A DNA stretch of 64,000 nucleotides from an uncultured Microthrixaceae bacterium (GTDB taxonomy: Bacteria > Actinomycetota > Acidimicrobiia > Acidimicrobiales > CAVOFX01): positions 584-64,583 of the forward strand of contig CAVOFX010000006.1 of NCBI GenBank assembly GCA_963695115.1. The letters run 5' to 3'. Of this stretch, positions 3,274 to 11,929 are shown piece after piece; positions within the stretch are counted from its first letter, which is position 1; the number at the start of each line of letters is the position of its first letter. A model generated the notes under the pieces. It worked only from the letters and a program-made list of their open reading frames with translations. It was not told the origin of the DNA and did not search any database. Position numbers and translations under genes: made by a program.

Positions 3274-3294
3274 CGTGTCGGAGGGGGGACTTGA
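3274..3294. repeat. Direct repeat of the tRNA-Leu(GAG) 3' end (distal att-like site)
   Basis: The 21-nt sequence cgtgtcggaggggggacttga is identical to 27177-27197. Confidence 0.75.
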
Positions 3295-3384
3295 CCAGCC
3301 GATACACCGACGGTGCGGTGGTCGCTCGACATCTCCGACGCCTAGTTGCGGCACCCGCGAGTCGATGGACACCTCGATGCAACG

Positions 3385-4095
3385 CTACGGGAAAGCCTGA
3401 TACGCGGCGAGCATCGTGTGCTGATCGTGCGTTTCCGTCGTGCGGAATCGGAGCCAACCGTATTGATACGAGGGGCACATCGTGTACATCGTCGTCGGGT
3501 TCCCTGCGCAGCCAGCGTCACTGAAGGCGAAGTGCCCGTAGTAGCCGTACCCGTGCCCCAGTTCGTGGGTCATCACCGACTCGAGATCCAAGTGCGTTCC
3601 CGGCGGCGCCGAGTCGTACGGCCACCACGTCTCCTTCGAGTCCAACGCAGGGTTCGCAGCAACAACGCGTCCTTGGTTGTACTTGACGCAAGTCCAGCCG
3701 TAGAGATTGCCCGTGTAGAACTCGAGCGCAGCGAGGTCGACCCAGTGGAATCGGTTGTCGCCGTCTGCATACGTTTCGCAGTTGACACTGAACCAGCTTG
3801 CCCCATCAGGGGATTGAACAATTGTCGCCGGACGACCAGAGGCGGCAAGCGGCCAGTTCAAGATCGAGTCGATCACACGATCTCGCCCCGGGTAGGGCGA
3901 ATTGGGCGGGAAGCTGGATGCGAAGCGGAAGTAGATGGTGTCGGGCTGCCAGGTGTACACGGTGCAGGGGGAAGCATCTGTGCTGCAATCGAACCAACTG
4001 TGGGCGTCCGCCGGTCGTGTGGGTAGGACGACTGCGCTCATAACGAGCCCGATGGCCAAGGCAACTCGCCTGCCGAGTCGACTCCAGTCACGCAT
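3385..4095 (-). CDS. Secreted zinc metalloprotease (metzincin-like, HELGHGYG motif)
   Basis: The 236-aa ORF is intact. It has an N-terminal signal-like segment (RRVALAIGLVMSAVVLPTRPADA), an HExxH motif in VMTHELGHGYGYYGH, and several Cys residues. Confidence 0.8.
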   Translation of the reverse strand: MRDWSRLGRRVALAIGLVMSAVVLPTRPADAHSWFDCSTDASPCTVYTWQPDTIYFRFASSFPPNSPYPGRDRVIDSILNWPLAASGRPATIVQSPDGASWFSVNCETYADGDNRFHWVDLAALEFYTGNLYGWTCVKYNQGRVVAANPALDSKETWWPYDSAPPGTHLDLESVMTHELGHGYGYYGHFAFSDAGCAGNPTTMYTMCPSYQYGWLRFRTTETHDQHTMLAAYQAFP

Positions 4096-4104
4096 GATGC
4101 CCCC

Positions 4105-4695
4105 CTAGCGATCCACGTCGGCTACGGCAGGATCGAATACGAACAGGCCTTCGCTCACGGCTTCCGAGCAGAACTCCCAGCCGGTAACCCCGAAGCCACC
4201 AGCAGGGTACTCCTGGATGGTGATCCGCATCACGTCCTGGCCACCCCGCCGGTAGACAAGACCTGAGCTGTCGAGCCTATAGCCGTCGACGGAGCCCTCG
4301 GAGGCCACATCCAGGCGTTCCGGCATCGCAGGCGCCGTGATGAAGACGCCGTCGATGATTGCCCTAGCCGCCTCCTCTGCACTCGTGAACGGTCCTGGCG
4401 AGTTGGCGTCAACGAGCCCAAACCCGGCGCTGCCGGTATCCGTGACGACGCATCCGAGCGCGTCGACGGGAACATCGGTCGGGACATCGCCGCTTTCCCG
4501 CTCCGCCTCGATGGGCTCCTCCACGAGGGTGGGCGATGGAGCGTCCTCGGCAGCTGGCTGAGAGCCCTGATCGCCGGAACTGACCTCTTGACCGCCGGTC
4601 GAGTCGCCACAACCAGCAAGTAGGAGTGCCAGCGTTAGGACGGCAGCGCCACAAGCGACACCTCGCGCCCTCGACAGAACCGGTCGGATTGTCAT
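4105..4695 (-). CDS. Putative lipoprotein
   Basis: An internal ATG at 4695 gives MTIRPVLSRARGVACGAAVLTLALLLAGCGDS, which is a lipobox (LAGC). The upstream part of the 492-aa ORF 4105-5583 is P/R/S-rich off-frame sequence that overlaps the relaxase tail. Confidence 0.7.
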   Translation of the reverse strand: MTIRPVLSRARGVACGAAVLTLALLLAGCGDSTGGQEVSSGDQGSQPAAEDAPSPTLVEEPIEAERESGDVPTDVPVDALGCVVTDTGSAGFGLVDANSPGPFTSAEEAARAIIDGVFITAPAMPERLDVASEGSVDGYRLDSSGLVYRRGGQDVMRITIQEYPAGGFGVTGWEFCSEAVSEGLFVFDPAVADVDR

Positions 4696-4996
4696 GGCCA
4701 CCTCCGAGAACGTCACACCGAGACTACCAGGCGTAAGACGACAGCCGCCCGGCTGCGGTTCCCAGGAACCCGGGGATCGGCGATCACGGGGAACTGCGGC
4801 GCCACCGAACTGGGTCGGCACCGACGTGAGTGCGCAGCATGGCCCAGCTGGCGCCCCGGACGTCGGAAGAACCGAGGAGCATGCCGGAGCTGCTGGACCT
4901 GGAGCCAAGGTCCAGCCGGCTTCCACCTGTCGTCGGCAGGGAACCTGTGCGCGACCGAACCAAGCCGGGCTCACATTACGCCACGAAGCAGAAGCG

Positions 4997-7734
4997 TCAC
5001 TGCAGGTCGATCCCGATGCCCCCGTCCATGGCGGGCGGCCCGCTATGTTGGAGGCGGTCGAGGCGTGCGGTGGCCTTGGCCACCTGTTCGGCGAGGTCCT
5101 CGCCGACGACATCGGGCTGGGGTAGGCTGGCGAGGAGGTCGTCGGCCATCGAGCGATGTGTGCGCAGGCCGTCAGGTTCGGGGAGTTCGGCGAGGAGCGC
5201 GTCTCGGCCGACACCGACGGGTGTGCCGTCGGGTTCGGGGAGGTTGGCCAACAGCTCCGAGGCGAGGTGCTGGGAGCGGTCCCGTGACAGCTCACGTTCG
5301 GCGTGCTCGAACAACAGCTCCCACCCCTCCACTCGCTGCGCTCGCTGCGGGTTGGGGGCGAGGATCTCCCACACGTCCTCGTCGGGGGTGCACATGTAGA
5401 GGCGGTTCTCGACCCGGCCCGTGGACAGCGCGGTGTAGGCGGCCTGGCGGTCGAGATCACCGTCGCCGCCGAGGGTGAAGACCCGGTCGGCGGTGGCGCC
5501 CTGCGTCTTGTAGTTGGTGCGGGCGTAGCCGTGGTCCAGGAACCCGGCCTCGAGACGGTCGGTGGGCATGGTGCGCTCGGCATCGACGCGCTCGCAGTGG
5601 AAGGTCACCGTCTTGTGGCGTTCGTTGATGGCGGTGACGGTGCCGAGGTCGCCGTTGAGGATGTCGAGGTCCCAGTGGTTGCGGCCGACCGCCAGAACCT
5701 GGTCGCCGACGGCGAACTCCCGGCCCGCCACCCGGATGCGGCGGTCGATTCCCAGCTCGTGGTTCCCGAACCGCCCGGCCGAGTCCAGGAGCGCACGCGC
5801 CCGGTCGTTGAGGTCGGCGACGTCGGCCCGGCGGGTGGCGATCATGACCTTGTCGTCGCCGGGGGCGTTGAACCAGTCGTCGACCAGTCGCTGTCGGAGG
5901 GCGTCCACGTTGTCGGCGGTGATGATGCGGCCGTTGTTGCCGTAGGCGGCGACCGCTTCGGACACGCGGCCGTTGCGGAGGTCGTCGAGCGCGCCCGACC
6001 TCCCACTCGTGGACCTGGCGGCGGTTCTCGACCAGCGTCGTGGACGGCGCGTGGATCGACATGGCCCGGAACGAACCGCCGGCGTCGATCTCGGGCAGCT
6101 GCGCGGTGTCACCAGCCAACACCAACTTGGCCCCGGCCTCGGTCGTGTGACGCGACAACCGATCGAGGGTTCGTGTCCCAACCATGCCGCTCTCGTCGAT
6201 CACGACCACACAGCCGGCGTCCAGCTGCAGGCGGCCTTCGTCGAGCTGGTTGAGCAACCGGGTGATCGTCATCGACGGGATCCCCGAACCGGCCGACAGC
6301 TCCGCAGCTGCACGCGCGGAGAGGGCCGCGCCGAACACCGAGTAGCCCGACGCCTCCCATCCCTCGCGGGCCGCGTCGAAGGTGAAGGTCTTCCCGGTCC
6401 CGGCCGCGCCGACCGCGACGTCAATGCCCGCACCGGATCCGGTGAGGTGGCGGACCATCGCAGCCTGCTCGTCGGAGATCGACGGGCGCGCGGCGATCGC
6501 CGCCTCGACCATCCCGGTGTCGGCGATGGCGGCCCCGGCGTCGCGTTGGGCGCGGGCGCGCTCGACGACCCGGTTCTCGGTCAACAGCAGCTCGACGGTG
6601 GTCCAGCGGGGTTCGCCGGCGACGTCGCCGACCTCGACGACGCGGTGCTCGGCCAGGAACCCGTCGGCCAGGTCCTCGATGGCAGTCACGTCCGCGCCGT
6701 CTCCCATCCGCTCGGCGGCCGCCCGCACCACGTCCCGACGCCCGAACGTCGACGCATGCTGCGTGACGCCGGTCGGGCGACGCGAGGTCGTCGAACAGCT
6801 CGCCGACCGACCACAGCTGCGGCTCCCGGGTCAACGCCCCGCTCCAGCAGCTCGGCGACCTGGACGGGACCGAACCCGAGCTCGTCCGCGCGTTGGGCCC
6901 AGTCGGCCCGCAGCGCGTTGGCGTCGACGTCGTAGACCTTCGCTCGGCGGGTGTCGAGCGCGGCGATCTGGGCGGCCTTGGCCGAGTGCTCGGCGCGGGC
7001 TTCCATCGCGTCGAGGATCTCAGCCCGCCGCGTCGAGAACTCGTCGATCACGTGGCGGGGGATGCCGGCGACATCGGCGTAGCCGTTGGTGACGGGTTGC
7101 CATTCGACGCCCAACCGGCGGGTCAGCTCGACCGCGCAGCTGGGCTTGGTAGAGGAACCCGGCGGTGCGGGCGTGGTGGAACATCGGCGGGCAGTGCAGC
7201 GCCCCCCAACGCCCGTCGGGCATCCGGGTCATGTTCGCGATCAGCACATGGGTGTGCAGCGTCGGGTCCCCCGCCCGCGACGGTCTGGTGGCGGAACCCC
7301 GCGGCGACGAACCCGTCACCGGGCACCTGGTGCTGGACGCCATCGGCCCGTCGGCGGGAGAGGCACACCTGGCGCTCGAGGTAGCCGACGGCGGCGTCGA
7401 CCGCAGCCTCGTGCGGGGCGACCACCTCACCGGTCACCGTGCCCGCCTCACCCAACCCGAAGAGCAGCGAGATGGACTTGGGTGCCCGGAACGTGAAGTC
7501 CAGGCCCGGCAGCTTCGCCCGGGTCAGCCGCTCGTCGCTCCCGGGTGCGCGGCCTTCGAGCACGGCGGTGAGATCGGCTTCGTCGACCATGCCGTCGAGA
7601 CCCAGGATCTCGGCGCCCTGGCCCAGCCATCGGCCCGGCGCTTCACCCCGGCCGGTGTAGTAGTCCTCCACGCCACTGGCGATCGACAGGTAGTACGACT
7701 GCTGGCCGACAGCCATCAACCCGATGTTCAACAT
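4997..7734 (-). pseudogene. MobF-family (TrwC/TraA-like) relaxase-helicase, at least 4 frameshifts
   Basis: The N-terminus is MLNIGLMAVGQQSYYL...YYTGRGEAPGRWLGQGAEILGL. The HxDxxxxHxH-type motif is DPTLHTHVLIANM. The helicase Walker A is AVGAAGTGKTF, followed by VVVIDESGMV and YARTNYKTQGATADRV. These pieces lie in ORFs 7123-7755, 7020-7430, 6686-7114, 5457-6731 and 4997-6181, in different frames. Confidence 0.85.
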
Positions 7735-7900
7735 GCGCACGCACCTCCACTTCACGTCCCCACCCCCTAGGCCGCTCGGTCACCCCGATCTTCGCGAAGA
7801 AGTCCGAGAAACCCCGGCGAGGTCACTCGCCGAGTCGCCGCCCAGGTCACAACCCGGGTCACTCGAATCGACCTGCGGGAGTGACTTGTCGCGCATCGGA

Positions 7901-8001
7901 GTCCCGGCGTTGGTCCCGGAATCGGTCCCGGTTTCGGTCCCACGTCCCCGTTGTCGCACCCGGCCATCCCGCTGGCTGTCCCGTTGAGTGTCCCGCTGGG
8001 C
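7901..8001 (+). repeat. Array 1 of 12-bp-periodic direct repeats (core GTCCCGG/GTCCCGY)
   Basis: gtcccggcgttg / gtcccggaatcg / gtcccggtttcg / gtcccacgtccc ... atcccgctggct / gtcccgttgagt / gtcccgctgggc. Confidence 0.85.
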
Positions 8002-8121
8002 GCGGCTTCCCCGTGCCCAACCCGGCCGGAGGCCGGGGCGGGAGCCCAACCGGTCGCAGCTGTGAGAAGGCGGGAGCATCGCTCCGAGGTGCGGACAGGA
8101 CGGCACGAGGCGGCACGACCA

Positions 8122-8181
8122 GTTCCCGGTCGCGTTCCCGTTCGGGATCCCGGTTGGTATCCCGCTGGGTGTCCGCTCGGC
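8122..8181 (+). repeat. Array 2 of 12-bp-periodic direct repeats (core TYCCGS)
   Basis: gttcccggtcgc / gttcccgttcgg / gatcccggttgg / tatcccgctggg / tgtccgctcggc. Confidence 0.85.
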
Positions 8182-8674
8182 CGCGAGCCAGTCTGTGACC
8201 CTGATCGTTGGTCGTTCATCGGTTGACCGATTCGGGCGAGGGCTCCATGGGTGCGGGAAGCCGGTTCGTGGGATGCGCGTGCGCGTGGGGGGTCGGGCGG
8301 TCGAGAGGTGGGCGGTACCGTCGCGGTGGCTGAACGCGCTTCTGGTTGGCGGCAGGGTCCTGATGGGTGGTGGTACCCCCCGATCAACGAGCGGGCGAGG
8401 CCGATCTGCGCCGACCGAGATCGGCTGGTCGGGCTCGCCGTGCTGGTGAGCTCCGGTGCGCTCACCACAGAGATCGACGCGATCGTCGACGATCCCGAAC
8501 TCGGCGTGTGAGCGAGCTCTCTCGCCGAGCACGGTGGTGCGTGTGAGCGACGGCAACGCACGCGGTTCAGTCCGCTATCAAGCGGGTTCGGCCGGCGTCG
8601 ACTTCGCCGCGTGGAACCTCGGGGAGAGCCCGATGGGGCTTTCACCGGTCGCGTGAGCCTCCTCATCCGGCGCA

Positions 8675-8804
8675 CCGGGACGGTCCCGGATCGGTCCGGC
8701 CGTCCCCGTTCGAGTTCCCGGATGCGTTCCTGGTTCGGTCCCGGATTCGGTCCCAACCCCAGGTCACGTCGTTGTTGGCAGTCCCGTTGGCGGGCCCGTC
8801 GGCG
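8675..8804 (+). repeat. Array 3 of 12-bp-periodic direct repeats, starting with a near-palindrome ccgggacggtcccgg
   Basis: gtcccggatcgg ... gttcccggatgc / gttcctggttcg / gtcccggattcg / gtcccaacccca ... gtcccgttggcg / ggcccgtcggcg. Confidence 0.8.
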
Positions 8805-8854
8805 CCCCTGCTCGGCCGAGTGCCCGGTTCGAGGATTCTGCAGATTTCTTCTGA

Positions 8855-8896
8855 CCGGGAACTCGAACGGGATAGGTACCGGGAGTCCCGTTTGCG
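8855..8896. repeat. Inverted-orientation copies of the same motif facing one forward copy
   Basis: ccgggaac, cgaacggga and accgggag are reverse complements of the array core. They are followed by a forward gtcccgtttgcg. Confidence 0.7.
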
Positions 8897-9058
8897 ATGG
8901 TCGACCCCGTGAGTCGTCCATCCGCCCGACCGGGACACTACCGAACGCTCCCTGGGTCTCCCCACCGCCGCGCAGGGCGTAGGTCGGGGAGTACCTCAGG
9001 TCACAAGTCGGGTCGTTGACGCCGGTCGAGGTCGCCGGCCTCACGCGATTTCGTCGGG

Positions 9059-9094
9059 CAGGTCGTACCTCAGGTCGTATGTCAGGTCGTACCG
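9059..9094 (+). repeat. Three 12-bp-spaced direct repeats CAGGTCGTA, ~200 bp upstream of the serine recombinase
   Basis: caggtcgtacct / caggtcgtatgt / caggtcgtaccg start at 9059, 9071 and 9083. A related acctcaggtc occurs at ~8993. Confidence 0.8.
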
Positions 9095-9294
9095 ATCGTC
9101 AGGGTCGGGTCGATGACTCCCCGATCCGACCAGGCGACGGTCGCCGTCGAGCTGCCTGCCGGGCTCCCGCCGGTGACGCCTGCAGTGGCCCGGCTGCTCG
9201 CCGTGATCGTCCGCGACGCCGCCCGCGAGGCATCGGTGGTCGAGCTGCGAGTCGGTCGACCCGGTGAGCCGCCCGAGGCCGTAGCGTCGTGACC

Positions 9295-10955
9295 ATGTCG
9301 AAGCGGTTCGCGTTCTACGGCCGAGTGTCCACCGAGGACCAGCAGGACCCGGCGTCCTCGAAGGCGTGGCAGCTCTCGCGGGCCAGCCAGCTGATCGACG
9401 GCCACGGCGAGGTGGTGGCCGAGTACTTCGACATCGGCCAGTCCCGGTCCCTGCCGTGGAAGCGGCGACCCGAGGCGTCCCGCCTCCTCGATGACCTGCG
9501 CCGCCTGGAGGACCGGTCGTTCGACGCGGTGGTGATCGGCGAGCCGGCCCGCGCGTTCTACGGCCAGCAGTTCGGGCTCACCTTCCCCACGCTCGTGCAC
9601 TACGGCGTCGAGCTGTGGGTGCCCGAGGTCGGCGGGCGGGTCGATCCCGACAGCGAGGCCCACGACCTCGTCATGTCGCTCTACGGCGGCATGTCCAAGG
9701 GCGAGCGCAACCGGATCAAGGTCCGAGTGCGCACCGCGATGGCGTCCCAGGCCGCCACCGAGGGCCGCTACCTCGGCGGCCGACCGCCCTACGGCTACCG
9801 CTCGCCGACGCCGGCGCCCACCCGAACCCGGCCAAGGCCGCCGACGGCAAGCGCCAGCATCGACTCGAGCCCGACCCCGACGCCGCCCCGGTCGTGCAGC
9901 GCATCTTCGCCGAGTACCTCGACGGACGAGGTCTCCGCTCCATCGCCGAGGCGCTCACCGCCGACGGCATCGCGTCCCCGTCCGCGCACGACCCCGCCCG
10001 CAACCGTCACCGCCAGCACTCCGGTGGTGCCTGGGCGCACTCGGCGGTGCGGGCCATCCTGCACAACCCCCGCTACACGGGCCACCAGGTGTGGGCCCGG
10101 CAGCGCAAGGACGAGGACCTGCTCGACCCCGAAGACGTCGCCCTCGGGCACCGCACCCGGATGCGCTGGAACGAGAAGGGCGAGTGGATCTGGTCGGCCG
10201 AGATCACCCACGAGCCGCTCATCGACATGGAGACCTTCGACCAGGTCCAGGCGATCATGGCCTCCCACGTGCGAGTCGCCCGCCCCAAGACCGTCATGCC
10301 CACCGAGCGGGCCTACCTGCTTCGGGGGCTGCTGTTCTGCGGGGTCTGCGGTCGACGGATGGGCGGCAACTACAACCACGGCAAGGCCCACTACCGGTGC
10401 ACCTTCCGCGAGCAGTACGCACAGAAGAAGGGCGTCGAGCACCCCCGCACCGTCTACCTGCGCGAGGACAAGGTCGTCCCCGCCCTCGACGAATGGCTCG
10501 GCCAGCTGTTCGACCCCGACAACCTCGACGCCACCTGCGAGCAGCTCGCCGCCGCGTACGAGCAACACGAGGACACGTCACGAGCCGAGCAGGCCCGCCA
10601 GACCATCGCCGACTGCGACCAGCGCCTCGCCCAGTACCGAGCAGCGCTCGACGCAGGCGCCGACGCCGCCACCGTCGCCACCTGGATGGCCGAGGTCACC
10701 GCCGAACGCAATCGCGCCGACATGGCGCTGCGCACCGCAACACCCGCCGACGCGCCCACCGCCACCGAGCTACGCGGGCTGATCGAGGGACTCGGCGACA
10801 TGGTCGCCGTGCTCGCCAACGCCGACCCCAAGCAACGAGCCGAGCTCTACGAAGCACTCGGACTGCGGCTCACCTGGCACCCCGAAGACAAGAAGGTGCT
10901 GGTAGAAGCCCAACCAGCGCGTGTGCTGGCTGGCGGTGTCGGAGGGGGGACTTGA
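9295..10955 (+). pseudogene. Large serine recombinase with one frameshift (~9800)
   Basis: The resolvase catalytic N-terminus is MSKRFAFYGRVSTEDQQ. After GGRPPYGYR the frame switches to that of ORF 9615-10955. That frame has the recombinase domain (VVQRIFAEYLDGRGLRSIAEALTADGI, YTGHQVW), a zinc-ribbon-like segment (LLFCGVCGRRM...HYRC) and a coiled-coil tail. Confidence 0.85.
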
Positions 10956-10957
10956 AC
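10936..10957. repeat. Direct repeat of the tRNA-Leu(GAG) 3' end (internal att-like site)
   Basis: The 22-nt sequence gtgtcggaggggggacttgaac is identical to 27178-27199. It overlaps the last codons and the stop of the serine recombinase ORF. Confidence 0.8.
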
Positions 10958-10977
10958 GCCGGATTCTGCCGTCCCAT

Positions 10978-11079
10978 CCCGTACCACCGAGTCGCTGTTT
11001 GTGCTGGTCAAAGGCGGTATTTCAGAAGGTCGTCTCCCGCCGGGTCACTTCCCGTACCGGCCCGTACCACCCTGTTTCC
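10978..11079 (+). repeat. Direct repeats CCCGTACCACC (x2) and CCCGTACCGG just inside the element A end
   Basis: cccgtaccacc occurs at 10978-10988 and 11061-11071, and cccgtaccgg at 11051-11060. Both full copies are followed within a few nt by ctgttt. Confidence 0.7.
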
Positions 11080-11230
11080 AGGACTTCCGCGGACAAACTG
11101 ATGACAAGCCCGAGGGTGTGTCGGGCGCAGGGCGCGGGGCCCGATTCAGTCCCACGAGACGCCTTCGCGATCTCAAGTTGAGACCGAGCCCGTCCGCCGC
11201 TCAGATCTGAGCCGTAGATCGAGGACTCAC

Positions 11231-11929
11231 CTACTCCTCGGTGACAGCAACCTCGTCCGCGATGATCGACTCCTCGGGGGCGGGGGCCTCGCCCTCGCTC
11301 GCCGGAAGGAGTTGGAGCAGCTCGCCGGATCCGGTCGCGAGGTAGAGCACCTCCACGTCGTCACCATCGCTTTCGTTTGGCGGGGAGATCCTCGTGCGAA
11401 GATGCTGCTGCCGCTTCGCCACCGACTTCTTTCGGTTGTTCCAGCGACCCTTCAGCTCCATCGCCATCAACCCGTCCGTCAAATCGACGACCAAGGCATC
11501 AGCCTGCTTGAGCTGATGGGCTTGTCCGTCCAGGAACTTCCGCAGCGCGGTGTAGGGGTTCTCAGGATCTGCGAGGGCAAGCGCTGCAGCATCGGCGATG
11601 AGAGCCTTACGCCGGATGGCGATGGCGGCCCGGGCCAAGTGCAGTTCGCGGACGAAGAGGTCGGCCTCCTTGGTCGGGCCCCCGAGCATCTCGTCCAGGC
11701 GGTGGTAGTTGACCTTGCCATCGCCTTCAACCAACCGACCGATGAGGTCACTGTGTTGTTCCAAGAACTGGTGCGACCGGTGGAACTCATCGTCAGCGCT
11801 CTTCAAAGCAAGCTCGAGGCTCGGATCGCGGCCGTCAAGGAGGAAACTGATCGCCTCGAGAGAGCTGTGCGTCCGCTGACCGTTGAGACGTGATGCGTTC
11901 CCGGTAGTACCGCTCGTCTTGCCGAGCAA
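11231..11929 (-). CDS. Hypothetical protein (helical, acidic C-terminus); may be the C-terminal part of a frameshifted fusion with 11835-12539
   Basis: This is a 232-aa ORF with a TTG start and no motif I recognise. Its frame stays open upstream (INVESKQRLLGKTSG) and overlaps the end of the preceding ORF. Confidence 0.4.
   Translation of the reverse strand: MLGKTSGTTGNASRLNGQRTHSSLEAISFLLDGRDPSLELALKSADDEFHRSHQFLEQHSDLIGRLVEGDGKVNYHRLDEMLGGPTKEADLFVRELHLARAAIAIRRKALIADAAALALADPENPYTALRKFLDGQAHQLKQADALVVDLTDGLMAMELKGRWNNRKKSVAKRQQHLRTRISPPNESDGDDVEVLYLATGSGELLQLLPASEGEAPAPEESIIADEVAVTEE

Follow-up and report, generated by a model that had tools for sequence, protein, structure and literature searches.

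TraM of the F family binds sbm motifs that lie 12 bp apart beside oriT and unwinds the DNA to about 12 bp per turn; binding is cooperative, and the sites (sbmA, sbmB and sbmC) overlap a transfer-gene promoter (PMC3159463). The sbm motifs are inverted repeats, read by RHH tetramers from the adjacent traM gene. In R388 (IncW, MOBF), where a TrwC-family relaxase gene adjoins the site, nic follows the inverted repeat IR2, whose rules are 5-nt arms, a 4-nt loop, 9 nt of single strand and a purine after the cut (PMC4176350). The R388 oriT also has TrwA and IHF accessory sites, and there are two sba sites. A different arrangement is found at the clt loci of Streptomyces. Here TraB binds repeated 8-bp motifs (PMC4447253, PMC3583192), which on pSVH1 read GACCCGGA (the TRS) and are clustered in fours (PMC5133688). 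The clt system transfers unprocessed double-stranded DNA in mycelial actinomycetes, with neither relaxase nor nic.

The locus described here is part of a 64-kb stretch of DNA (64,000 nucleotides, the window) from the genome of an uncultured member of the Acidimicrobiales, abundant and mostly uncultured actinobacteria of soil, freshwater and sea. To our knowledge, nothing experimental is known of gene exchange in this order. The locus belongs to a 7.7-kb integrative mobilizable element, bounded by att repeats, in which a serine recombinase gene, a cis region of about 1.5 kb and a MobF relaxase gene follow one another (Table 1). Pfam places TrwC at 7123-7755 on the minus strand (E = 5e-34) and AAA_30 downstream of it, at 5457-6731; in the recombinase, Resolvase is matched from 9289 and Recombinase and Zn_ribbon_recom on 9615-10955. 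The relaxase is 87% identical to a paralogue in the same genome (G000 C1:43282-46049), and its start agrees with that of the aligned intact orthologues. The gene is intact in L027, L039 and L025 and frameshifted in the window. Relaxases that are 91-97% identical occur in MAGs of different families, from which it follows that these islands are moving now; the window element is decayed, and its own arrays may therefore be out of use. Searches for Rfam families (7000-11500), tRNAs (1-25000) and sigma-70 promoters and terminators (7650-9350) gave none.

Table 1. Features of the element, in window coordinates.
Feature	Position	Strand	Details
Left att repeat	3275..3303	+	Partner 10936-10964; direct repeat family D14, 86% identical
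MobF/TrwC relaxase-helicase pseudogene	4105..7734	-	Several frameshifts; conserved start MLNIG... at 7734
Phased (A/G)GTCAC-type units (n = 4)	7821..7868	+	GGTCAC at 7821, 7845, 7857; GAGTCGCC at 7833
Inverted repeat and conserved TTGTCGCGCATC	7858..7897	+	GTCACTC-N14-GAGTGAC, then TTGTCGCGCATC
Array A	7901..8001	+	GTCCCG(G) units, 4 + 3: 7901, 7913, 7925, 7937 (degenerate); 7966, 7978, 7990
Conserved spacer block	8005..8080	+	CCCAACCCG...GGGGCGGGAGCCCAAC...GGCGGGAGCATCG; inverted cores CGGGAGC at 8039 and 8071
Array B	8123..8182	+	5 units of (T/A)TCCCG type: 8123, 8135, 8147, 8159, 8171 (degenerate)
Predicted oriT nic region	8175..8199	+	IR2-like hairpin GCTCG-gccg-CGAGC (8175-8188), then CA-GTCTGT-GAC; predicted hairpin-nic sequence GCTCGNNNGCGAGC-CAGTCTGTGACC, oligonucleotide form GCTCGACCGCGAGCCAGTCTGTGACCC
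ORF-a	8326..8511	+	61 codons, VAERASGWRQGPDGWWYPPINER...IVDDPELGV; in frame in L036 and L037, frameshifted in L041
ORF-b remnant	8508..8656	+	About 165 aa in L037; window copy lacks about 380 bp internally
Array C	8675..8804	+	Palindrome CCGGGAC-G-GTCCCGG (8675-8689), 7 units (8683-8761), 2 units (8781-8804); unit starts 8683, 8694, 8702, 8714, 8726, 8738, 8750; 8781, 8793
Array D	8855..8896	-	Three minus-strand units (8861-8885), back to back with a plus-strand unit at 8885
Phased CAGGTCGTA units (n = 3)	9060..9091	+	12-bp phase; upstream of recombinase operon; separate repeat family
Large serine recombinase	9289..10955	+	One frameshift near 9650-9800; GC3 changes frame

The cis region holds about 25 units with the core (G/T)TCCCG(G), spaced 12 bp apart in four arrays (A to D). 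An earlier note on this DNA had described four such clusters, and all were found where it placed them. The exact 12-bp spacing of same-orientation units is also borne out: in 7780-9290 there are nine same-strand TCCCG pairs at exactly +12, compared with a mean of 0.014 and a maximum of 1 in 2000 shuffles, and Tandem Repeats Finder assigns the arrays a period of 12. Across the whole window +12 is the only enriched spacing. Array C is an exception in two places, with one 11-bp and one 8-bp step; this array is kept in L037 and L039. The inverted copies facing a forward one at the fourth site are the units of array D, where 8855-8871 repeats the 17 bp of 8705-8721 in array C perfectly, in inverted orientation. 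When 8660-8910 is folded as a single strand, C pairs with D (z = -3.9; none of 200 shuffles was as stable).

Only part of each unit is conserved. The consensus offered earlier needs correction: the informative part of the 12-mer is (G/T)TCCCG(G), and the last 4-5 positions of the 12-mer are near background. Among five homologues from three taxonomic families TCCCG(G) alone forms invariant columns, the cores of array A among them, and the homologues differ by indels of 1, 2 and 5 nt, which are not multiples of three. In close orthologues the number of units shifts in 12-bp steps with the phase kept; for example, array B has 4 units in L027 and 6 in L039. Other parts of the region are conserved as well. 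The (A/G)GTCAC-type units adjoin the relaxase promoter region and are found in L021, L027, L039 and L040. The inverted repeat at their end, with TTGTCGCGCATC, is probably a promoter/operator element of the relaxase gene, and GTCGCGCA(T/C)C is invariant across the five aligned homologues. The spacer block is common to the window, L001, L021, L027 and L036-L041.

The 12-bp-spaced TCCCGG repeats are real, conserved and non-coding. From about 7760 to 9290 GC3 is flat at 0.6-0.75 in all frames, compared with 0.85-0.97 in the flanking genes. The 425-aa ORF at 7767-9044 has no Pfam match and, as the earlier note had judged, does not convince as a gene. Its description of the stretch as gene-less agrees with GC3 and fails at two places, the conserved small ORF-a and the remnant ORF-b. 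ORF-a is probably a small cargo gene of the leading region. Neither has a Pfam family, and the region's small ORFs gave no match to an RHH or HTH family; Pfam, NCBIfam and PDB gave no assignment for ORF-a, ORF-b, a 59-aa ORF that precedes the recombinase, a 178-aa protein of L019 or a 245-aa protein of L029. In intact relatives the arrays persist between genes.

Array B abuts the hairpin, its last unit overlapping the distal arm. The hairpin and the GTCTGT that follows fit the R388 IR2/nic rules (PMC4176350), and features of MOBF origins are present here, namely the adjacent TrwC-family relaxase gene and an IR2-type inverted repeat with a nic core on the correct strand. As in R388, the 5-bp arms enclose a loop of 3-4 nt, a short single-stranded stretch with GTCT and then a purine follow, and a region of accessory sites lies between nic and the transfer gene. 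All relaxase lineages examined share this architecture, and in each it is abutted by array B or by a lone TCCCG. Its arms are kept by compensatory changes in four further lineages, as GCACG/CGTGC, GCAAC/GTTGC and GCACA/TGTGC, found by an explicit hairpin search, and as GCACC/GGTGC, read by eye (G000 C5:251944); the last, in a lineage of this same genome, are the arms of R388. Loop lengths differ between nic regions. We infer that the hairpin marks nic and that the transferred strand would be the plus strand. The nicked strand points away from the relaxase gene, which would therefore enter last. In R388 and F, too, the relaxase gene enters last. The conserved hairpin-GTCTGT motif is an immediate search key for the origins of transfer of this clade.

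The differences from R388 are also marked. The element is integrative and without a T4SS; no plasmid relaxase in PLSDB exceeds 37% identity to its relaxase domain, and no DNA match was found there either; and in place of the two sba sites of R388 it has some 25 direct repeats, 12 bp apart, distributed over four arrays. No accessory gene of the TrwA, TraY or TraM type was found among the small ORFs of the module.

Arrays of this type are almost confined to the neighbourhood of TrwC genes. In the present genome (G000) they occur at five of nine TrwC loci. All seven G000 loci with at least three phased units are in mobile-element contexts, and four of these, together with one degenerate array, lie upstream of TrwC genes; another is beside a nic-like GTCACTCGTCTCGG without a relaxase, and one adjoins a tRNA. 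All four TrwC genes of the complete Acidimicrobiales genome G294 have arrays, and nine of the ten matches with at least three units in this genome fall within about 1.2 kb of these genes. A further MAG (G003) has arrays at 9 of 11 TrwC loci. Among the imperfect four-unit arrays fetched and annotated from an order-wide scan of 401 genomes, those outside G000 and G003 are mostly at a TrwC or T4CP gene. No arrays were found near the only T4CP and the extra FtsK-like genes of G003, nor near the second T4CP of G201. The arrays may be 20-65 bp upstream of the relaxase start (L005), in the divergent promoter region of a T4CP gene (L029), between an HTH_17 gene and the 178-aa gene upstream of the relaxase (L019), or distant from any relaxase (L002, L003 and L020). 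In two relatives (L026 and L028) the same DNA repeats lie within the relaxase ORFs, as Pro/Gly-rich linkers (GPGL/VPGS). With arrays inside relaxase genes or away from them, there is no constant position with respect to nic. When 298 ORFs from the vicinity of arrays, at 22 loci, were compared by all-against-all BLAST, no small protein family recurred beside the arrays; the families that recur are the relaxase, recombinases and a primase (plus shadow frames). The primase, of 1100 aa, is found beside the arrays in a sister element type (L001, L021, L022 and L040).

These sequence comparisons make it probable that the arrays are cooperative protein-binding sites forming an extended oriT of a small integrative mobilizable element. 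Of the earlier note's alternatives, the supported one is therefore that they belong to the oriT of the neighbouring MobF relaxase; the support comes from the linkage to TrwC genes and from the abutment of array B on an R388-like hairpin. By analogy with F, they are best read as relaxosome and operator sites comparable to the TraM-sbm sites, whose 12-bp spacing beside oriT they share (PMC3159463). A nick in the plus strand would be made at the hairpin-GTCTGT site. Arrays A and B occupy the gap from the probable relaxase promoter to the distal arm of the hairpin; C and D are placed some 0.5 kb inside what would be the leading region, past a variable cargo slot. A putative protein reading the core may polymerise head to tail along the units. 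To bring successive sites onto one face the DNA would have to be underwound towards 12 bp per turn, as by TraM, and such underwinding could favour extrusion and melting of the neighbouring hairpin-nic for the relaxase. The same bound protein would also occlude the relaxase promoter, and the positions of the arrays in L005 and L029 fit such an operator role. The inverted arrays C and D could make looping possible, or the formation of a hairpin within the single strand as it enters.

Several observations count against an extended oriT. The array units are direct repeats and far more numerous, whereas TraM sites are inversely symmetric, and no gene like traM accompanies them in window-type elements. 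No small protein family recurs beside the arrays, some arrays are inside relaxase genes or remote from them, the window copy is decayed, and no T4CP or VirB4 gene that would mark a helper was found in G000 (92% complete). Candidates for the reader are the relaxase, the only protein always present, or a trans factor from a helper conjugative element or the host. The islands form a family of minimal elements that consist of a relaxase and a recombinase and have, besides a predicted nic site, a set of phased sites that is extensive and very unusual. Once identified, a reader of the TCCCGG arrays would reveal how such islands are mobilised.

Relaxosome accessory proteins usually also regulate their own genes, and the extended-oriT reading therefore overlaps with one in which the arrays are purely transcriptional operators for the relaxase, recombinase and T4CP promoters, with no direct role in DNA processing. 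The binder would then repress or activate the element and might be, for instance, a winged-helix protein or an excisionase-like HTH_17 protein. Arrays are indeed in promoter regions in L005, L029 (divergent genes, including the T4CP gene) and L019, and HTH_17 genes or domains are near several of them. Window-type elements encode no such regulator, however, array B abuts the hairpin-nic rather than a promoter, and the arrays of L026 and L028 are within coding sequence. Operators alone are thus an unlikely explanation.

A more speculative proposal is that the arrays are a portable address tag by which relaxase-only islands are captured by a trans-acting DNA motor. Several host genomes of the islands are without recognisable conjugation machinery, and either a helper coupling protein or a TraB/FtsK-like pump for double-stranded DNA might act as the motor. 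In that case the element would be a hybrid in which an oriT/relaxase route is combined with a clt-like one, and the in-frame repeat linkers inside relaxase genes would be dual-use sequence. In an alternative version it is the MobF relaxase that would polymerise along the repeats, a behaviour that we know of for no relaxase. Even with both versions taken together, the proposal is improbable.

Several clusters of short direct repeats also recall replication iterons, or centromeres of the ParR/omega type, and the arrays might serve the excised circular form as a replication origin or partition site. The primase of the sister elements would suit this, and rolling-circle replication, driven by the relaxase, could start at this same nick. 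The iterons for Rep or Par suggested by the earlier note have no rep or par gene to go with them: rep, primase, parA, parB and parR are all absent from window-type elements (rep: 3275-10964), and no gene for ParA, ParM, TubZ or a centromere-binding protein was found among the ORFs of the element or its orthologues. Moreover, elements that have the primase and elements that lack it carry arrays alike, some arrays are within relaxase genes, and the 12-bp units with their 6-8-bp core are in G+C-rich DNA (0.67-0.72) without an A+T-rich unwinding element. An origin or a centromere is thus very unlikely.

The reading that the earlier note put first takes the arrays as clt-like sites on which an FtsK/TraB-type translocase would load. 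Such a translocase, acting on double-stranded DNA, would give the element a transfer route independent of the relaxase. The note gives the TRS correctly, and the core GTCCCGGA matches GACCCGGA at 7 of 8 positions (PMC5133688). The arrays resemble clt in that they form clusters of about four, may overlap coding sequence (PMC5133688, PMC3583192) and appear in either orientation, even inside genes. The translocase itself is missing: in G000, at 92% completeness, the FtsK_SpoIIIE (PF01580) matches comprise the FtsK of the chromosome and type VII EssC/EccC-like proteins, namely an EccC-like frame of 1547 aa and an FHA-EssC pair beside WXG100, with no TraB-like gene among them, and in the complete G294, where four relaxase loci bear arrays, the chromosomal FtsK is the only such protein. 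The arrays go together with TrwC genes and a nic hairpin, for which the clt system has no use, and the host is not a mycelial actinomycete. TRS triplets in genomes of the phylum, those of Streptomyces size among them, have periods of 9, 12, 13 and 14 rather than a fixed 12, most matches in that scan being coding tandem repeats. We therefore regard clt-like sites as highly improbable. TCCCGG has no strand skew (654 vs 705) and is therefore not a KOPS-like signal for the host FtsK. An abundant 7-mer that is strand-skewed is GGGGGAG.

The decayed gene for a tetrapeptide-repeat (Pro/Gly-rich) protein that the earlier note had considered can practically be dismissed: a period of 12 is four codons, the linkers of L026 and L028 are translated from the same repeats and long open frames span the arrays in the window and L037, but GC3 in the open frame is about 0.67 against more than 0.85 in real genes, the frame over arrays A and B differs between the window and L037, homologues are out of frame with one another, units are on both strands with conservation in the core only, there is no Pfam match, and the arrays are intergenic in intact relatives. 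Two further candidates were dropped, an ECF promoter whose -35/-10 pair does not fit the spacing, and restriction sites (GGGAC/CCGG), CCGG being missing from many units.

The CAGGTCGTA repeats upstream of the recombinase operon have counterparts in L018 that read CAGGGAGTA, so that this second repeat family varies with the recombinase.

The four arrays of 12-bp-phased (G/T)TCCCG(G) repeats in the window (A-D in the table; G+C ~70%) are a real, conserved cis element. They probably belong to a known general kind, the phased accessory sites in oriT, and the family itself is undescribed. Its unusual traits are the ~25 sites in four arrays, the 12-bp period, the missing cognate binding gene, a core common to several relaxase lineages, and an occasional location within relaxase ORFs. 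In the array region, same-strand TCCCG pairs at +12 were observed 9 times, against a mean of 0.014 and a maximum of 1 in 2000 shuffles; +12 is the sole enriched unit spacing across the entire window, and TRF also calls a period of 12. In a logo of 86 distinct units from 14 loci, with core positions preselected, the only signal beyond the core is G at -1, G/T at 0, G at +6 and T at +7. Because the remaining positions are at background, the unit is described here as a putative 6-8-bp recognition core plus free spacer.

Features of the array-bearing element and hairpin-core sites of related loci
Feature	Position	Strand	Description
Direct repeats	3275-3303, 10936-10964		bound the 7.7-kb element
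MobF/TrwC relaxase-helicase	7123-7755 (Pfam TrwC), 5457-6731 (AAA_30)	minus	left of arrays; broken into several frames
GGTCAC-type units	7821-7868		four, 12-bp-phased; beside relaxase start/promoter
Inverted repeat	7858-7897		with conserved GTCGCGCATC; beside relaxase start
Array A (TCCCG core)	7901/7913/7925, 7966/7978/7990	plus	exact 12-bp spacing; degenerate unit 7937 after the first three
Conserved block between A and B	8039, 8071		two inverted cores
Array B (TCCCG core)	8123/8135/8147/8159	plus	exact 12-bp spacing; then degenerate unit 8171
Predicted nic	8175-8196	plus	GCTCG-(g/a)ccg-CGAGC-ca-GTCTGT; also L001, L027, L036-L041
ORF-a	8326-8511		61 codons; in-frame conservation in L036, L037
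ORF-b remnant	8508-8656		internally deleted; intact (~165 aa) in L037
Array C	8683-8761, 8781/8793	plus	seven units with one 11-bp and one 8-bp step, then two
Array D	8861/8873/8885	minus	back to back with plus-strand unit at 8885
Third repeat family	9060-9091		CAGGTCGTA x3, 12-bp period; before recombinase/near its promoter
Large serine recombinase	9289- (Pfam Resolvase), 9615-10955 (Recombinase + Zn ribbon)	plus	right of arrays; one frame change
Site of second window relaxase			GCACG-agcg-CGTGC-actc-GTCTGT
Site of L021			GCAAC-gta-GTTGC-aa-GTCTGT
Site of L025			GCACA-ccgc-TGTGC-aa-GTCTGT
Site of L004			GGTCCCG-aa-CGGGACC-...TCGTGT
Site of further lineage	G000 C5:251944		GCACC-gt-GGTGC-AAGTTTGTG; read by eye

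Array D repeats part of array C in inverted orientation, perfectly over 17 bp, and single-stranded 8660-8910 folds with the two arrays paired (z = -3.9); arrays A-B as single strands show no unusual folding (z = -1.8). The recombinase-side repeats change with recombinase type, from CAGGTCGTA in the window to CAGGGAGTA in L018, a compared locus with a different recombinase. Another motif, GAA(A/G)TCCGAGAA, recurs near mobile-element gene starts (window 7799-7810, L001, L019, L020, and upstream of the second window relaxase) and could represent a promoter or operator element common to them.

The arrays carry no coding signal. Across 7760-9290 the G+C content is flat at all three codon positions (0.6-0.75; GC3 of flanking genes 0.85-0.97), and the 425-aa ORF there matches no Pfam family and has a GC3 near 0.67. 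When homologous regions were aligned (five, drawn from three taxonomic families), the array columns that do not vary were the TCCCG(G) cores, with intervening gaps of 1, 2 and 5 nt. The window and L037 do not share the open frame over arrays A and B. A decayed repeat-protein gene, once considered for these repeats, is rejected on GC3, frame non-conservation and indels. Both checks proposed beforehand, for a coding signal (none found) and for retention in intact relatives (arrays kept), favor a cis element. The earlier note's term "gene-less" holds for the arrays themselves but not for the B-C segment with its conserved ORF-a, whose protein contains …GWRQGPDGRWYPPINER…EIDEIVDDPELAV, and ORF-b remnant. 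Neither ORF has a Pfam family; together they look like a two-gene cargo cassette, perhaps toxin-antitoxin-like. Since the contents of this segment differ among relatives (IS110 in L027, L036 and L041, another gene in L039, ORF-a plus ORF-b in L037), it behaves as a cargo slot.

The position of the arrays suggests a link with conjugative processing. When perfect hairpins with a GT(C/T)TGT-type core behind them were searched for explicitly, every homologous region yielded one site. Three of the five arm positions show compensatory change, and GTCTGT is constant. The motif fits the rules for R388 oriT (PMC4176350), in which arms of 5 nt enclose a 4-nt loop, 9 nt remain single-stranded and the cut is followed by a purine. 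The arms at G000 C5:251944, in the source genome, are by eye identical to those of R388 IR2 (GCACC/GGTGC). In the window the motif points away from the relaxase gene, which would therefore enter the recipient last, as in R388 and F. Array B terminates on the distal hairpin arm; at the sites of L039, L025 and the second window relaxase, a TCCCG has its G as the first base of the arm. No other argument for a role of the arrays in DNA processing, as opposed to gene control alone, is as strong as this positional coupling.

Arrays and TrwC genes are also linked across genomes. In the source genome (G000; 3.4 Mb in 10 contigs scanned, 92% complete), seven loci have runs of at least three phased units. 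TrwC relaxase genes have the array upstream at four of them (the window, C1:46480, C5:404702 and C6:175478), and the copy at a fifth relaxase (C5:7780) is degenerate. The array at C1:216036, without a relaxase, lies at the edge of an integrase/Xis/Fic element and adjoins a nic-like GTCACTCGTCTCGG; one array adjoins a tRNA. TrwC loci number nine in this 3.4 Mb, several of them frameshifted. In G294, a complete Acidimicrobiales genome, nine of ten matches with at least three units are within ~1.2 kb of its four TrwC genes, each of which has one, and in another MAG (G003) arrays occur at 9 of 11 TrwC loci. Counted from either side, the linkage is consistent.

A scan of 401 genomes of the order for four phased TCCCG units gave many perfect tandem or coding repeats plus a set of imperfect arrays; those fetched outside G000 and G003 are described here. 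L025 and L027 share the window's relaxase / cis region / serine recombinase layout, each with its array upstream of a TrwC gene. Within the TrwC ORFs of L026 (6950-7010) and L028 (590-650), TCCCGG 12-bp repeats are translated as GPGL or VPGS linkers. The L028 segment after the linkers, inserted in the relaxase domain, resembles by eye an HTH_17/excisionase-type helix-turn-helix; Pfam does not report HTH_17 there. L029, on an 11-kb contig of G201, has its array where a VirD4/TraG coupling-protein gene has its divergent promoter region; there, CTCCCGG-type units and a CGGGAcTCCCG palindrome (6488-6545) separate that gene from a 245-aa gene of unknown family. Similar CTCCCGGA(G/C)TT units occur in G045, G297, G333, G334 and G270.

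Relaxase domains of L036-L041, compared with that of L027, show 91-97% identity across family boundaries; the MAGs are assigned to Microthrixaceae, Ilumatobacteraceae and, in one unclassified case, 'Actinomycetes'. Such identity implies that these relaxase-bearing elements have probably spread horizontally between families in recent times; the named relatives place the clade in the Acidimicrobiales. A conserved acidic-hydrophobic tail, …EPP(A/M)(V/I)DDGLG(I/L)DLW, forms the C-terminus of the L036, L038 and L039 relaxases and is reminiscent of short docking peptides, e.g., SSB or TraD tails.

The earlier note favored clt-like loading sites for a TraB-type translocase. The TraB recognition sequence that it gave is correct (PMC5133688). 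However, the motor is absent, and the model leaves the relaxase linkage unaccounted for. Triplets of that sequence occur in genomes of the phylum with periods of 9, 12, 13 and 14. G000 has no TraB-like gene, its FtsK-family matches being FtsK, an EccC-like frame and an FHA-EssC pair beside WXG100; at 92% completeness, neither a T4CP (coupling protein, PF12696) nor a VirB4-like (PF12846) gene was detected. The complete G294 has FtsK as its only FtsK-family gene and no T4CP. TCCCGG as a signal for host FtsK is ruled out, since it has no strand skew in G000 (654 vs 705). The most strand-skewed abundant 7-mer there, GGGGGAG (833 on the G-rich strand vs 293), is a candidate FtsK-orienting (KOPS-like) motif of the organism. 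The iteron and partition readings are unlikely: window-type elements carry no rep or par gene.

For accessory sites in oriT, candidate readers are the relaxase itself, a helper-encoded factor or a host protein, the last disfavored because all G000 arrays are in mobile-element contexts. The T4CP locus of G003, with an array-less TrwC relaxase gene nearby, has no arrays. When 298 array-proximal ORFs from 22 loci were compared all against all, the recurrent families were limited to relaxase (15 loci), serine recombinase, tyrosine integrase and primase. A model is provided by F TraM, whose sites are 12 bp apart beside oriT and whose binding unwinds DNA to ~12 bp per turn (PMC3159463). By this analogy we infer that protein would bind the array units cooperatively, head to tail; the underwinding would assist extrusion and melting of the adjoining hairpin-nic and would also shut the relaxase promoter, and the distal C/D arrays might permit looping, or a hairpin in the entering strand. 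Two other loci, L019 (8712-8770) and L020 (8150-8240), share AGATCCGAGAAGCACAC…GCAGGTTCCCC-TA-CGGGGAACCTGC with a perfect 11-bp hairpin, which may be an att site or terminator of another G003 island type.
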